DNA of 64,000 nt from Candidatus Iainarchaeum sp. (GTDB lineage Archaea > B1Sed10-29 > WALL01), in contig JAGGYF010000028.1 in the NCBI GenBank assembly GCA_021162685.1, forward strand, positions 4,699 through 68,698, given 5' to 3'. The position numbers and the translations under genes were made by a program. Below, in pieces: positions 4,096 to 63,766 of this stretch (position 1 is its first letter; each line of letters opens with the position of its first letter). Below the pieces are notes generated by a model. That model was given only the letters and a program-made list of their open reading frames with translations, did not search any database and was not told the origin of the DNA.

Positions 4096-4530
4096 ATGGC
4101 AAGAAAATATAGTGCTCAAGGTATTGAAGGTGCAAGGGCGTATGGAAGAGAGATGGATATCTCTCCAAAACATGCCATAGAGATATGCAGAGAGATCAGA
4201 GGAAAAAACGTGAATAAGGCTATTACATTCCTTGAGAAGGTCATAAAGAAGGAGGCATTTGTTCCATTCAAACGATTCAATAGCAAGGTTGCACACAGAA
4301 AAGGCGGTAAACCAGGAAGATATCCTGTTAAGGCATCAAAAGCGATATTGAAAGTGCTTGAGAATGCAAAAGCAAATGCTGAGAACCAAGGGATGGACAC
4401 TGATAAACTCATGATAGTACATGCAGCTGCTCATAGGGGCCCTGTATATGATAGAAGGGCACCAAAGGGGAGGATGAGAACATCTGCCATAGAAACCGTA
4501 AATGTTGAAATAATTGTAAAGGAGGCCTGA
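4096..4530 (+). CDS. rpl22: 50S ribosomal protein L22
   Basis: L22/L17e family; conserved position after S19. Confidence 0.9.
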   Translation: MARKYSAQGIEGARAYGREMDISPKHAIEICREIRGKNVNKAITFLEKVIKKEAFVPFKRFNSKVAHRKGGKPGRYPVKASKAILKVLENAKANAENQGMDTDKLMIVHAAAHRGPVYDRRAPKGRMRTSAIETVNVEIIVKEA

Positions 4531-16633: not shown

Positions 16634-16715
16634 TAGAGCAAAACACAAAAGGTATGAGGTTTCGGGATACACCTGCTACTACCATAGAAATCATTGAAGC
16701 TGGGGTCGCATAGGC

Positions 16716-16764
16716 CCAAATTACATATGGGCGTTCGTAGTGGGATACAAGATCCCACTATTAG
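16716..16764 (+). repeat. conserved structured element C1: CCAAATTACATATGG-GCGTTCGTA-GTGGGAT/ACAAG/ATCCCAC hairpin-TATTAG
   Basis: Near-identical copies at 36438-36480 and 36553-36603; the copy 3 hairpin differs by compensatory changes; lies about 10 nt upstream of tRNA-Ser. Confidence 0.6.
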
Positions 16765-16774
16765 AAAACCATAA

Positions 16775-16858
16775 GCTGGGGTCGCATAGCCTGGTAGTGC
16801 GCAGGCCTGGAGAGCCTGTTTCCTTCGGGATGCGTGGGTTCAAATCCCACCCCCAGCG
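16775..16858 (+). tRNA. tRNA-Ser (anticodon GGA)
   Basis: Manual fold: acceptor GCUGGGG/CCCCAGC, D-stem GCAU/GUGC, anticodon stem CAGGC/GCCUG with loop CUGGAGA, 15-nt variable arm with UUCG tetraloop, T-arm GUGGG-UUCAAAU-CCCAC, discriminator G. Confidence 0.85.
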
Positions 16859-16952
16859 CTCTACTACTGGAGCTAATAGCGCCAAGAGAACCAAAAGCAA
16901 TATAAACAATTATTGTATAAACTTATAACGTATAATTTTATAAGGTGATTGA

Positions 16953-22732: not shown

Positions 22733-23065
22733 ATGCCATATGGAGATGGAACAGGACCTTTAGGATTAGGACCAATGACTGGAAGAGGTCTTGGATACTG
22801 CGCTGGATATAATGCTCCAGGTTTTGTTTTTGGCCCAGGTTGGGGCAGAGGAAGAGGCTGGCGCAGAGGATGGGGCAGAGGATTTGGATGGAGGTTTTGG
22901 GGTGCACCATATTGGAGAGCACCATATCCACAACAATACTGGAAACCAACAAAGGAGGAAGAAAAGACCATATTACAAGAAGAACTAAAAGCTTTAGAAG
23001 AAGAAATGAAGGCAATTGAAGAGGAAAGAAAAGCCATCCAGAAAAAACTTGCAGAGCTGAAGTAG
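22733..23065 (+). CDS. DUF5320 family protein (Gly/Arg/Trp-rich N-terminus, C-terminal coiled coil)
   Basis: GPLGLGPMTGRGLGYCAGYNAPGF...GWGRGRGWRRGWGRGFGW, then a coiled coil EEEKTILQEELKALEEEMKAIEEERKAIQKKLAELK; strong SD AAAGGAGGTGA. Confidence 0.6.
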   Translation: MPYGDGTGPLGLGPMTGRGLGYCAGYNAPGFVFGPGWGRGRGWRRGWGRGFGWRFWGAPYWRAPYPQQYWKPTKEEEKTILQEELKALEEEMKAIEEERKAIQKKLAELK

Positions 23066-35539: not shown

Positions 35540-36312
35540 TGAGGGTAAAGGTTCTTGAAAGCAAGCCAAATAAAGTAAAGCTTCATATAAGCGGCACAAA
35601 ACCCGTTATTGTTAACTCTTTAAGAAGGGCAATCCTGGGTCTAGTACCCGCGATGGCAATAACAGAGGTGAACATATACGAAAATACATCCGTGATGTTT
35701 GATGAATATATTGCGCACAGGCTTGCAATGATTCCACTAACAACAGATTTGAAAACATATAAGATGCCAGAGGAATGCGAGGGAGGTGGATATAATACAT
35801 GTTCTGTTGATTTGAGTTTAGATGTAAGCGGACCAAAGATGGTTTATTCCTCTGATCTCAAAACAACTGACCCAAAAGTAAAACCTGTTAGTGGAAAGAT
35901 ACCTATTATTGAACTTCAACCAGGGCAACGCCTGAGGCTTGAGGCAAAAGCAACATTGGGTTATCCAGAAGAGCATGTGAGATGGCAGGTTGGAAACGCA
36001 GCATATAGATATGTATTTAACGTGAAGATAGGAAAGGAATGTGAGAACTGTCTTGAATGTGTTAAAGCGTGTCCAAAAAAGGTATTAAAGAAAGGAAGTA
36101 AGAAAATAGAGGTCGCAAATCCGCTAGAATGCAATGGATGTGGCATATGCAAAGAGGTATGCAAAAAGGGCGCCATTGAAATAATACCAGACACAACATC
36201 ATTCATATTCACCATAGAGACAAACGGGCAGATGAGTGCGAGGGACGCACTTAACACAGCAGTAAGTGCACTCCAGAAAAAGGTCTCAGAGATGAGAGAG
36301 ATAATGAAATAA
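35539..36312 (+). CDS. rpoD: DNA-directed RNA polymerase subunit D
   Basis: RpoD/Rpb3 fold with inserted 4Fe-4S ferredoxin-like Cys clusters (CENCLECVKACP, CNGCGICKEVC). Confidence 0.9.
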   Translation: MRVKVLESKPNKVKLHISGTKPVIVNSLRRAILGLVPAMAITEVNIYENTSVMFDEYIAHRLAMIPLTTDLKTYKMPEECEGGGYNTCSVDLSLDVSGPKMVYSSDLKTTDPKVKPVSGKIPIIELQPGQRLRLEAKATLGYPEEHVRWQVGNAAYRYVFNVKIGKECENCLECVKACPKKVLKKGSKKIEVANPLECNGCGICKEVCKKGAIEIIPDTTSFIFTIETNGQMSARDALNTAVSALQKKVSEMREIMK

Positions 36313-36314
36313 AT

Positions 36315-36433
36315 GCGGGGGTGCCGGAGCCTCCCTCGTGCCTTCATTGGCACGAAGGCTCAAGTGGTCAAACGGGCAGGATTGAGGGTCCTGTGGCTTA
36401 GTGCCTGCGCGAGTTCGAAGCTCGTCCCCCGCA
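36315..36433 (+). tRNA. tRNA-Leu (anticodon GAG) with a roughly 30-35 nt intron in the D-loop (non-canonical position)
   Basis: Acceptor GCGGGGG/CCCCCGC, anticodon stem CAGGA/UCCUG with loop UUGAGGG, long variable arm, T-arm GCGAG-UUCGAAG-CUCGU, discriminator A; the extra segment containing hairpin CCCUCGUGCC-UUCAUU-GGCACGAAGG lies between D-stem strands at about 36330-36361. Confidence 0.75.
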
Positions 36434-36662
36434 CTGACCAAATTACATATGGTCGTTCGTGGTGGGATACAAGATCCCACTTACAGCAGGAGGGGGTGTG
36501 GAATCCGAGGGTTTCCAGGGGGAACCTGGGTTCCCCATAAAGGACGCTCTGACCAAATTACATATGGTCGTTCGTGGTGTGGCATAAAGCCACACTATTA
36601 GAGGGGGATGTGCCCCCATAAAGGACGCTCTTCGAAGCTCGTCCCCCGCACTGACCAAATTA
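36434..36662 (+). repeat. tRNA-Leu-proximal repeat array: two tandem units (C-element + GC hairpin + ATAAAGGACGCTCT) ending in a 32-nt duplicate of the tRNA-Leu 3' end
   Basis: Unit A 36434-36550, unit B 36551-36631; C-elements at 36438-36480 and 36553-36603; ATAAAGGACGCTCT at 36537-36550 and 36618-36631; TTCGAAGCTCGTCCCCCGCACTGACCAAATTA at 36414-36445 and 36631-36662. Confidence 0.7.
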
Positions 36663-36709
36663 AACAACCTAGAAAATCCGAGTCCGAAAGGGCGTAAGGA
36701 GGTATTGGG

Positions 36710-37006
36710 ATGATATCAAAAAAGATTGCGAAGACAAAACTTGGAAAGGAAATAAAGAAACGCATGGAAAAGAGCAGAAAGAACAAGGCAGAAGTAAACA
36801 TAGGTAAGATTGCGAAGTATACAAAAAAAGGCGATAAGGTTGTGGTCGTTGGAAAGGTCCTGGGCATGGGTAGTATAAGTCATGCTGTAACTGTTGCTGC
36901 TCTAGCCTTTTCAAAATCTGCAAAAGAAAAGATAGAGAAGGCAGGGGGAAAAGCGATCCGTATACATGAACTTGAAGAAACAAAGGGAGTTAAATTGATG
37001 GCATGA
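36710..37006 (+). CDS. rpl18e: 50S ribosomal protein L18e
   Basis: L18e family; conserved position before L13. Confidence 0.85.
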   Translation: MISKKIAKTKLGKEIKKRMEKSRKNKAEVNIGKIAKYTKKGDKVVVVGKVLGMGSISHAVTVAALAFSKSAKEKIEKAGGKAIRIHELEETKGVKLMA

Positions 37007-37454: not shown

Positions 37455-37880
37455 ATGGCGAGAAAGAAAGCAGATATACTGACAAAAGCAAAGAAAAAAA
37501 CAGCAATAGCAAGAGCTGTGATAAAAAAGGGTACAGGAAATATACGAATTAATTCAAAATCCATTGACACAATAACTGATGAGATGGTCAGAGATGAGAT
37601 AATGATTCCTTTTAAGATTGCATCAAATATATTGGGCGAAGGGTTTGAGGATAACATTGATATTTATGTTAACGTCAGAGGCGGAGGAGTAATGGGGAGA
37701 GCAGAAGCAGTAAAATCAGCAATAGCAAGAGCAATAGTAAAATACACAAATAATGATAAGTTGAAGGATGCATTCCTTTCGTATGACAGGCATCTTCTCG
37801 TAGATGATGTAAGGAGGAAGGAGCCAAAGAAGGCGTTAAGGAAAGGAGCAAGGGCAAAATATCAGAAGAGTTATAGGTGA
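37455..37880 (+). CDS. rps9: 30S ribosomal protein S9
   Basis: S9 family ([19 protein letters not shown]...KYQKSYR). Confidence 0.9.
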
Positions 37881-37884
37881 TGTT

Positions 37885-38079
37885 ATGCATATACCAGTAA
37901 GATGTTTTACATGTGGAAAATTGATAGGACATAAATGGGAAGAATTTAAGAAAAGAGTTGATAAAGGGGAGGATCCAGAGAAGGTGTTGGATAGTCTTGG
38001 ATTTGATAGATACTGCTGCAGAAGAATGTTCATAAGCCATGTTGAGGTGATGGATGAGATAAAGAAATACCCAAGATAA
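37885..38079 (+). CDS. rpoN: DNA-directed RNA polymerase subunit N (Rpb10)
   Basis: [10 protein letters not shown]...RYCCRRM zinc-bundle signature. Confidence 0.9.
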
Positions 38080-38107: not shown

Positions 38108-38180
38108 GGGGCCGTAGGGTAGCTTGGTATCCTACCAGCTTGGGGTGCTGGCAACCCGAGTTCAAATCTCGGCGGCCCCA
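38108..38180 (+). tRNA. tRNA-Pro (anticodon GGG)
   Basis: Acceptor GGGGCCG/CGGCCCC, anticodon stem CCAGC/GCUGG with loop UUGGGGU, T-arm CCGAG-UUCAAAU-CUCGG, discriminator A; followed by a T-tract (TTGTTTTTTG) terminator; the D-arm register is uncertain by 1 nt. Confidence 0.8.
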
Positions 38181-63635: not shown

Positions 63636-63766
63636 AGCCCCGTAGTCTAGTGGCCAAGGATGCAGGCCTTTGGAGCCTGCGACGGCGGTTCGAAAATGAG
63701 GAACCTCCAGCGGGTTCCTCATCCACCTCCAGCAACCACTGGAGTTCGAAAATCCGCCCGGGGCTA
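63636..63766 (+). tRNA. tRNA-Gln (anticodon UUG) with a roughly 56-nt intron inside the T-loop (non-canonical position)
   Basis: Acceptor AGCCCCG/CGGGGCU, D-stem GUCU/GGAU, anticodon stem CAGGC/GCCUG with loop CUUUGGA, T-stem GGCGG/CCGCC; the T-loop is interrupted, with GTTCGAAAAT repeated at 63688-63697 and 63744-63753. Confidence 0.7.

Follow-up and report, generated by a model that had tools for sequence, protein, structure and literature searches.

The window, the whole 64-kb stretch of DNA analysed here, belongs to an uncultured Candidatus Diapherotrites archaeon (DPANN). The next closest protein to the host RpoD among 5.8 billion proteins was 56% identical, and no closer relatives are on record beyond 56–59% protein identity. 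Between rpoD and the L18e gene (assigned by Pfam families), a complete tRNA-Leu(GAG) gene is followed by two related units, U1 and U2, and then by a second copy of the tRNA 3' end. X denotes the ~54-nt core with which each unit begins. The features of this locus are the following.

36315–36433, + strand: complete tRNA-Leu(GAG) gene with a 33-nt non-canonical D-loop intron at 36332–36364
36414–36445, + strand: repeat copy 1, comprising tRNA positions 54–73 (36414–36433) and the first 12 nt of U1
36434–36548, + strand: unit U1 (115 nt), with X core at 36434–36487 (hairpin A GACCA/TGGTC, linker GTTCGT, hairpin B GTGGGAT/ATCCCAC), an extra imperfect hairpin (GGAATCC..GGTTTCC), a GC hairpin (GGGGAAC/GTTCCCC) and tail ATAAAGGACGCT
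36549–36630, + strand: unit U2 (82 nt), with X core at 36549–36602 (hairpin B GTGTGGC/GCCACAC, compensatory relative to U1), a GC hairpin (GGGGG/CCCCC) and tail ATAAAGGACGCTC
36631–36662, + strand: repeat copy 2, comprising displaced tRNA-Leu positions 54–73 (36631–36650) followed by CTGACCAAATTA

Neither ARAGORN nor Rfam called the tRNA-Leu(GAG) gene on the unedited sequence, because of the 33-nt intron in its D-loop; when the intron was deleted in silico, ARAGORN returned a clean 87-nt tRNA-Leu(GAG) cloverleaf. The intron borders form a BHB-like helix (GCCG/GAGC/CUC...GCUC/AAG/UGGU). The tRNA-Gln gene of the window carries a 58-nt T-loop intron (63695–63752) with a canonical BHB, and the 3' end of this intron repeats GTTCGAAAAT of the exon. 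Standard tRNA finders overlook both genes, which make up half of the tRNA genes in the window. A TATA/BRE-like TTTTATAT was seen by eye ~28 nt upstream of tRNA-Gln, and inspection of X by eye found no such sequence at a usable distance.

The initial annotation had reported a 32-nt direct repeat at the tRNA-Leu locus and compared it with the footprint of integration into a tRNA gene. The repeat, TTCGAAGCTCGTCCCCCGCACTGACCAAATTA, is exact and occurs twice (36414–36445 and 36631–36662). Its 20-nt tRNA part had no further match and was matched in none of 100 dinucleotide shuffles, so the duplication is non-random. The proposed footprint geometry was borne out as well, with the duplicated segment running from T54 in the T-loop to the discriminator and the intact tRNA kept. 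The extent given for the repeat was correct, but the 12 nt after the tRNA end, initially taken for tRNA trailer, are the first 12 nt of X, and in one sister assembly (L005) the second tRNA fragment is not followed by TGACCAAA, which shortens the repeat to 22 nt. Repeat copy 2 is, judging from its sequence, a non-functional tRNA-Leu 3' end, with a T-stem that has no pairing partner.

The two units had also been recognised initially as similar sequences with differing GC hairpins, and closer comparison supports this. U1 and U2 share an identical 31-nt head, CTGACCAAATTACATATGGTCGTTCGTGGTG (starting at 36434 and 36549), and an identical 18-nt tail, CCCCATAAAGGACGCTCT (starting at 36533 and 36614); the GC hairpins between head and tail differ, and a 33-nt indel distinguishes the units. 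The U1/U2 junction reads GGACGCT/CTGACC. A tandem duplication of the tRNA trailer, one of the origins first suggested for the array, accounts for the pair of units but not for the duplication of the tRNA end or for the copy of X at tRNA-Ser described below. A CRISPR array was rejected; the two 31-nt heads lie 115 nt apart, and the "spacers" between them, of 84 and 71 nt, are mutually related and have the 18-nt tail in common. A derivation of the U1 and U2 middles from decayed tRNA-Leu was likewise rejected, with local alignments no better than those of shuffles (p = 0.5 and 0.7). The unit middles contain GAGGGGGTG and a CCGAGGG loop, a likeness to tRNA-Leu that is suggestive only.

A third copy of X at tRNA-Ser(GGA)

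A further X core was located directly upstream of the tRNA-Ser(GGA) gene, 20 kb from the tRNA-Leu locus, and is 95% identical to that of U1 over 44 nt.

16697–16713, + strand: duplicate of the tRNA-Ser(GGA) 5' end (AA plus positions 1–15), equal to 16773–16789
16712–16766, + strand: third X core, with hairpin A GCCCA/TGGGC (compensatory) and hairpin B as in U1, followed by AAACCATAA and then the tRNA
16775–16859, + strand: intact tRNA-Ser(GGA) gene immediately downstream of X, found by both ARAGORN and Rfam

The sequence ahead of this X, AAGCTGGGGTCGCATAG (16697–16713), is an exact copy of the tRNA-Ser 5' end, and the duplication spans 15–17 nt from −2/position 1 to D-loop position 15. An intact tRNA copy is kept at both loci. 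The duplications are separated by 59 nt at tRNA-Ser and by 195 nt at tRNA-Leu, and neither interval holds an integrase, another gene or a conserved ORF. X joins the tRNA-derived copy at the same X nucleotide at both loci, with a left end that reads G[A/C]CCAAATTA, and the X units meet the mature tRNA ends exactly (CCATAA/G1 for tRNA-Ser and A73/CUGACC for tRNA-Leu). The tail of the tRNA-Ser X consists of AAACCATAA only, unlike the GC hairpin and ATAAAGGACGCT that follow each X at the tRNA-Leu locus. Two assembled contigs (L006 and L007) end at the duplicated fragment, a break that at contig level is uninformative about an empty site.

The presence of X at tRNA-Ser together with a 5'-end duplication indicates that what was inserted was either this short DNA as such or what a larger element reproducibly leaves behind. 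The array had initially been described as a possible scar of repeated integration and excision; the insertion footprint in that description stands, but the scar is not a random one since X also occurs at tRNA-Ser.

All three X are preceded by CGCWYWG (CGCATAG, CGCACTG and CGCTCTG) ahead of the same start nucleotide, and the other end of the insert varies. We consider it unlikely, but worth weighing, that X is a MITE- or SINE-like sequence that entered CGCWYW sites by staggered-cut or target-primed transposition and left variable target-site duplications of 15–22 nt; tRNA ends would then be targeted only because they contain CGCWYW. The X of U2 is flanked by a 16–18-nt duplicate that is not derived from a tRNA (CCCCATAAAGGACGCTCT), as transposition would have it, although duplication of the entire unit in tandem is the simpler explanation, given that the AGGGGGA...CCCC hairpin ahead of it is shared too. 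The window further carries the first 8 nt of X (TGACCAAA) after the second CGCAC, and L005 lacks them; an abortive second insertion would fit this difference, and a gene-conversion tract explains it equally well. X does not have the features of a MITE or DNA transposon, in that terminal inverted repeats are absent and the duplications vary (15–17, 16–18 and 20–32 nt). No transposase or reverse transcriptase was identified from a plain listing of the ORFs of the window, and prokaryotic transposases are not known to leave target-site duplications so long and variable. The outer ends of both duplications coincide with tRNA gene termini, which is predicted by att-type recombination but not by target-site duplication.

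Structure and distribution of X

X consists of two hairpins and a 3' part. Hairpin A has a 5-bp stem and a loop, AAUUACAUA, that is the same in all three copies; the linker between the hairpins (GUUCGU) is also invariant. Hairpin B has a 7–10-bp stem, and its loop varies (ACAAG versus ATAAA). The 3' part contains a TATTAGA/TTACAG segment. Double compensatory changes affect four of the 15 pairs, one in hairpin A (A-U to C-G) and three in hairpin B, although with three sequences only. The copies are mosaic: hairpin B is common to U1 and the tRNA-Ser copy, the 3' TATTAGA segment to U2 and the tRNA-Ser copy, and hairpin A to U1 and U2. Fold z-scores against shuffles were −4.1 and −4.3 for the tRNA-Ser unit and U2, and −1.7 for U1.

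These properties would suit modules or genes of small structured RNAs carried on tRNA transcripts and either freed by RNase P and RNase Z or forming hairpins with a protective or regulatory role within the tRNA-Ser leader and the 5' UTR of the L18e operon, with the tRNA-end duplications arising as a by-product of module spread. The compensatory changes, the constant loop and linker, the low folding scores of two copies and the exact abutment of X on mature tRNA ends all favour such a role, as does the location of both loci within probable transcription units. On balance we regard it as rather unlikely. The covariation is thin, coming from three copies, and the U1 fold is no better than shuffles; the directional duplication of tRNA ends is left unaccounted for by an RNA function alone. 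C/D and H/ACA sRNAs were rejected, as X has no such boxes and no Rfam match. For the block, a search of the window with Rfam 15 at gathering score gave no family, and one of 36200–36800 at E ≤ 10 gave only a spurious 12-bit match, in agreement with the initial impression that no known RNA could be recognised.

Further copies of X were sought with an nhmmer profile and a covariance model. Beyond the two tRNA loci, none was found in the 64-kb window and none in ~880 kb of relatives; X is therefore not a conserved RNA. The covariance model scored the tRNA-Ser copy at 82.4 bits, which is self-recognition because the model was built from the same three copies. The evidence for X thus comprises three copies from one population.

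The initial annotation had proposed a search for a mobile element that carries the att-like sequence elsewhere, and this search came back empty: no free or larger element with X or an att junction was found in IMG/VR, INPHARED, PLSDB or the JGI metagenomes, collections from which the lineage is essentially absent. Specifically, exact-pattern scans of IMG/VR with the tRNA 3' 20-mer, the unit head and a degenerate X gave 0 matches, as did a scan of the JGI metagenomes for X, and blastn against INPHARED phages and PLSDB plasmids returned nothing meaningful. A concatenated six-frame translation of X, meant to catch spurious ORFs over other copies, was compared with 5.8 billion proteins and nothing scored.

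Insertion status and parallels in other genomes

The flanking genes allowed the tRNA-Leu locus to be compared with that of relatives. The gap between rpoD and L18e is 398 nt in the window, versus 172 nt in L008 and 152 nt in L010. Subtraction of the 33-nt intron and the 217-nt block leaves 148 nt, near the gap of the relatives. In the relatives rpoD is followed by tRNA-Leu(GAG), either uninterrupted (L001, L003, L019, L037 and L081) or otherwise interrupted, with L18e close behind; the second tRNA 3' copy in the window lies 59 nt from the L18e start, which matches the range seen in relatives after their single tRNA end. At the tRNA-Ser locus, the spacing between the methyltransferase (MTase) gene and tRNA-Ser(GGA) is 141 nt in the window versus 10–20 nt in L094 and L096, and the interval contains neither the 5' fragment nor X in relatives. 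The flanking methyltransferase has no close variant on record that could offer an empty-site allele within the population. The insert is thus absent from both loci in relatives, which share 53–59% protein identity with the host. These comparisons, of the kind proposed at the outset, show the 217-bp block to be an insertion in the 3' part of tRNA-Leu(GAG) that is specific to this lineage.

The same array was assembled independently from three other samples (L012, L013 and L005), giving four assemblies in all, so it is no assembly artefact. L012 and L013 are identical to the window over the array. L005 shows three small differences, namely one SNP in U2, the missing TGACCAAA and an adjacent A>G. 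Differences between strains cluster at the 3' junction of the array, and the 8-nt difference at the second junction, which reflects either a gene-conversion tract or an abortive second insertion, marks that junction as the most labile part of the array. It had been pointed out initially that an identical array in related genomes would indicate a stable structural feature. Identical arrays were found only within one population (98.6–100% identity), so a stable ancient feature is not demonstrated.

Two other DPANN genomes have the same architecture with different sequence. In a Woesearchaeota chromosome (L003), two perfect 107-nt units lie downstream of a tRNA-Ser(GCT) gene that contains an intron, and at the end of each unit stands a 16-nt copy of the tRNA-Ser(GCT) 3' end that starts in the T-loop; two scans of IMG/VR for this insert gave 0 matches. 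In another Diapherotrites MAG (L094), ~115 nt of GC hairpins lie downstream of tRNA-Ser(GGA), together with a degenerate copy of its T-arm and 3' end. Neither insert is related to X. In a survey of 40 tRNA genes from all of the fetched DNA, 3' ends recurred downstream only and 5' ends upstream only, with no recurrence in the control directions or on the opposite strand. No kb-scale element bracketed by tRNA ends was present in the fetched loci. Such architectures in two further genomes suggest that the process is directed and has recurred.

These parallels bear on the idea that no mobile element was involved and that tRNA genes were rearranged locally through replication slippage, template switching or gene conversion; X would then be an intergenic sequence like any other that was copied from one locus to the other. 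Tandem duplication, the mosaic exchange among U1, U2 and the tRNA-Ser copy and the 8-nt strain difference would all fit this idea, and yet it needs two independent events that placed the same X nucleotide at a duplicated tRNA terminus and left both tRNAs intact, and the recurrent, directed process suggested by L003 and L094 also speaks against it. We judge it very improbable.

The block could also be a present or incipient T-loop intron, or an alternative 3' exon, with the splicing endonuclease removing 217 nt, as an intermediate on the way to non-canonical introns or split tRNA genes. Non-canonical introns are numerous in this lineage and among its relatives at exactly these loops (the D-loop of tRNA-Leu and the T-loop of tRNA-Gln in the window, and the T-loop of tRNA-Leu in L004 and L010). 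Joining position 53 to the second copy would yield an identical tRNA, and the MFE fold of the tRNA-Leu locus pairs both TTCGAAG regions. Nevertheless, strict and relaxed scans found no BHB motif by which the units, the 217-nt block or the tRNA-Ser insert could be excised; the same scans recovered the canonical BHB of tRNA-Gln and the BHB-like motif in the tRNA-Leu D-loop. Even under relaxed settings no BHB has the T-stem as its outer helix, and the junction is predicted to fold as one continuous helix containing a 1-nt bulge and a 2x2 loop. The tRNA-Ser 5' fragment forms no BHB with the intron end either. Without a BHB motif the block was rejected as an intron in present-day function, and splicing would be unnecessary because the upstream 3' copy already completes the cloverleaf. 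We therefore hold a present or incipient intron to be very unlikely.

A related but distinct suggestion is that these loci are snapshots of the DNA-level birth of non-canonical tRNA introns or fragmented tRNA genes. A structured element would enter the D-loop or T-loop together with a duplicated exon segment; the insertion would be harmless at first because one complete tRNA copy remains. Were the inner exon copy to decay later, the palindromic TTCGAA of the duplicated T-loop would provide the central helix of a BHB and the insert would become an obligatory intron. In keeping with this, the tRNA-Gln T-loop intron ends in a copy of GTTCGAAAAT of the exon, and the T-loop intron of L010 includes CCCCGCACTG, which resembles a tRNA 3' end. 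This scenario is doubtful on present evidence; if true, it would supply the missing mechanism of "intron transposition" and bear on how non-canonical tRNA introns spread.

Origin of the inserts and known systems

The duplication from loop to gene terminus, the intact tRNA, the directionality and the tandem units together have the geometry of att-type recombination. Our favoured interpretation, to which we assign a probability of roughly 45%, takes X for a miniature or vestigial representative of a family of integrative elements that target tRNA ends, inserted by att-type recombination which regenerated the tRNA. Archaeal mobile genetic elements recombine with the 3'-distal part of tRNA genes and less often with the 5'-distal part, including a tRNA-Ser case; the archaeal att sites reported measure 8 to >25 bp, and a single site can hold a tandem array (PMC6563490). 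SSVs (fuselloviruses) use tRNA-Leu(GAG) and its T-arm (PMC4090602).

The duplication, the insertion status, the X family, the common junction and the lack of a splice motif are observed; how recombination proceeded, that a parent element exists and in which order the events occurred are inferred. X would be the att-proximal module of such an element, either a non-autonomous miniature or the constant remnant left after loss of the element body. A tRNA segment borne by the element would have recombined with the chromosomal gene in a Campbell-type reaction, mediated by an integrase or by short homology, and the insertion would have regenerated the tRNA and displaced its original end. The two units at tRNA-Leu may stem from tandem accretion or unequal crossing-over, and a middle att copy that was lost through a 21-nt deletion between CT microhomologies would account for the U1/U2 junction. 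Under integration an attP-like junction would read GGACGCTC-TTCGAAGCTCGTCCCCCGCA-CTGACCAAATTACATATGG, and an uninserted tRNA-Leu site would read T-arm and acceptor followed by CTTAGACAACC or ...AAATTAAACAACC, without the 217 nt. The block would now probably be passive, forming the tRNA trailer and the 5' leader of the L18e operon.

Several observations count against this interpretation. Inserts of 59 and 195 nt are too small for autonomy, and a 76-bp circle is an unlikely recombination substrate. The occurrence of near-identical X at a 3' end (tRNA-Leu) and a 5' end (tRNA-Ser) of unrelated sequence is unusual for a site-specific integrase. Compensatory hairpins with a constant loop A and linker are seen more typically in RNA or ssDNA structures under selection than in inert att arms, and CGCWYWG before every X could be the target motif of a transposition-like mechanism. 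The block also has no conserved ORF or integrase, and the database searches described above yielded no parent element.

Archaeal viruses and plasmids classically integrate at tRNA genes, and in DPANN archaea these genes are unusually disrupted. What is unusual here is the tiny, gene-free insert and the presence of the same module at the 3' end of one tRNA and the 5' end of another with an identical junction. If X is a miniature integrative element, it would represent a new kind of archaeal non-autonomous mobile DNA and give a starting point for tracing mobile elements and integrases in Diapherotrites.

Dicistronic tRNA-small RNA genes exist, for example the tRNA-C/D box sRNA units of Nanoarchaeum. 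They resemble X in that a structured element abuts a mature tRNA end in a DPANN host and would be released by RNase P or RNase Z. X differs from them in lacking C/D boxes, H/ACA boxes and an Rfam match, in being accompanied by tRNA-end duplications, and in having one copy upstream and the others downstream of a tRNA. Split and permuted tRNA genes likewise have separate tRNA fragments (here tRNA-Ser positions 1–15 and tRNA-Leu positions 54–73) beside hairpin-forming flanks, whereas the fragments described here are exact copies of a neighbour, adjoin a complete gene and form no BHB with a partner.

According to the account of Fujishima et al. (2010) in PMC4090602, Thermoproteales have transposed non-canonical introns, near-identical short structured sequences in the D- and T-loops of different tRNAs that spread at the DNA level by an unknown mechanism. 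As in that account, a short structured repeat occurs here at two tRNAs of a host lineage rich in non-canonical introns. In contrast to the introns as described there, X lies outside the mature tRNA, has no BHB, sits beside an intact tRNA with a duplicated exon segment and needs no splicing.

The att duplications of archaeal viruses and plasmids (SSV-type, pTN3/TKV-type and thaumarchaeal iMGEs) resemble the loci described here in the tRNA repeat that runs from a loop to the gene end, the regenerated tRNA, the 3'-distal and rarer 5'-distal targets, the tandem accretion and an att length within the reported range (PMC6563490; PMC4090602). Unlike those elements, the X inserts span 59–195 nt, have no integrase, other gene or detected parent, and place one ~54-nt structured module at two tRNAs with unrelated att sequences. 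Bacterial CIMEs, which are integrase-less, att-flanked derivatives, are comparable to the X inserts.

Intron position in tRNA-Leu(GAG) and tRNA-Gln(TTG)

36332-36364: D-loop intron of tRNA-Leu(GAG), non-canonical, 33 nt
L010 10782-10906: tRNA-Leu(GAG) locus of a compared genome, with a 41-nt T-loop intron
63636-63766: tRNA-Gln(TTG), the fourth tRNA gene of the window, containing a T-loop intron
63695-63752: T-loop intron of tRNA-Gln(TTG), 58 nt, with a canonical bulge-helix-bulge (BHB)

The tRNA-Leu(GAG) gene of the window is interrupted in the D-loop. Among its orthologues in relatives, those of L001, L003, L019, L037 and L081 are uninterrupted, those of L008 and L031 carry an intron in the anticodon loop, and those of L004 and L010 carry one in the T-loop. 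Within this single orthologous gene, introns thus change position quickly. The T-loop intron of L010 contains CCCCGCACTG, a 10-nt match to the 3' end and trailer of the window tRNA-Leu, which may be a relic of exon duplication or a chance match.

In the window, tRNA-Gln(TTG) was detected by neither ARAGORN nor Rfam. The BHB of its intron reads GGCGG/UUCG/AAA ... CGAA/AAU/CCGCC, two hairpins lie inside the intron, and the exon sequence GTTCGAAAAT recurs at the intron 3' end. A TTTTATAT box is located approximately 28 nt upstream of the gene.

Surroundings of tRNA-Ser and variation in the population

At its 3' end, the X copy (the two-hairpin repeat core) that precedes tRNA-Ser(GGA) carries CTATTAG (16759-16765). 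This heptamer is perfectly complementary to CTAATAG (16872-16878), which lies in the trailer of tRNA-Ser; therefore, a 7-bp leader-trailer stem could form around the tRNA, although the complementarity may have arisen by chance.

Short contigs from sister samples (L005, L006 and L007) stop exactly at tRNA or duplication boundaries, corresponding to window positions 38108 (the start of tRNA-Pro), 16702 (within the first tRNA-Ser fragment) and 16789 (immediately past the second), a pattern suggesting either that the population is heterogeneous there or that repeats caused the assemblies to break. Micro-diversity in the population is indicated by strain variant L012, in which the S9/rpoN junction is 40 nt shorter than in the window (37851-37890), and by L013, which differs from the window by 7 mismatches in 1.6 kb.

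Another repeat in the window, an imperfect, GC-rich 12-nt tandem repeat (GGCAGAGGATGG-like), occupies 22825-22905, in or close to an ORF.

tRNA-end copies and hairpins in other genomes

In L001, a relative with 53% identity, the tRNA-Leu trailer (4181-4245) holds tandem hairpins based on ACCATCGT repeated three times; their sequence is unrelated to X, and the tRNA end is not duplicated.

Hairpin inserts with tRNA-end copies were found at two tRNA-Ser loci.

L003 2075-2413: tRNA-Ser(GCT) array, Woesearchaeota chromosome OY970338.1; intron-containing tRNA, then tandem units
L094 3096-3330: tRNA-Ser(GGA) locus, Diapherotrites MAG DAOVQM010000003.1

Behind the Woesearchaeota tRNA are two perfect tandem units of 107 nt, each composed of a 91-nt insert rich in hairpins and 16 nt copied from the 3' end of the tRNA, with an oligo-T run after the final copy. 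Downstream of the Diapherotrites tRNA-Ser(GGA), GC-rich hairpins span approximately 115 nt, and beyond them the T-arm and 3' end of this tRNA recur in degenerate form (GAGTTTCAGGCGAAACTCACCACCCAGCG).
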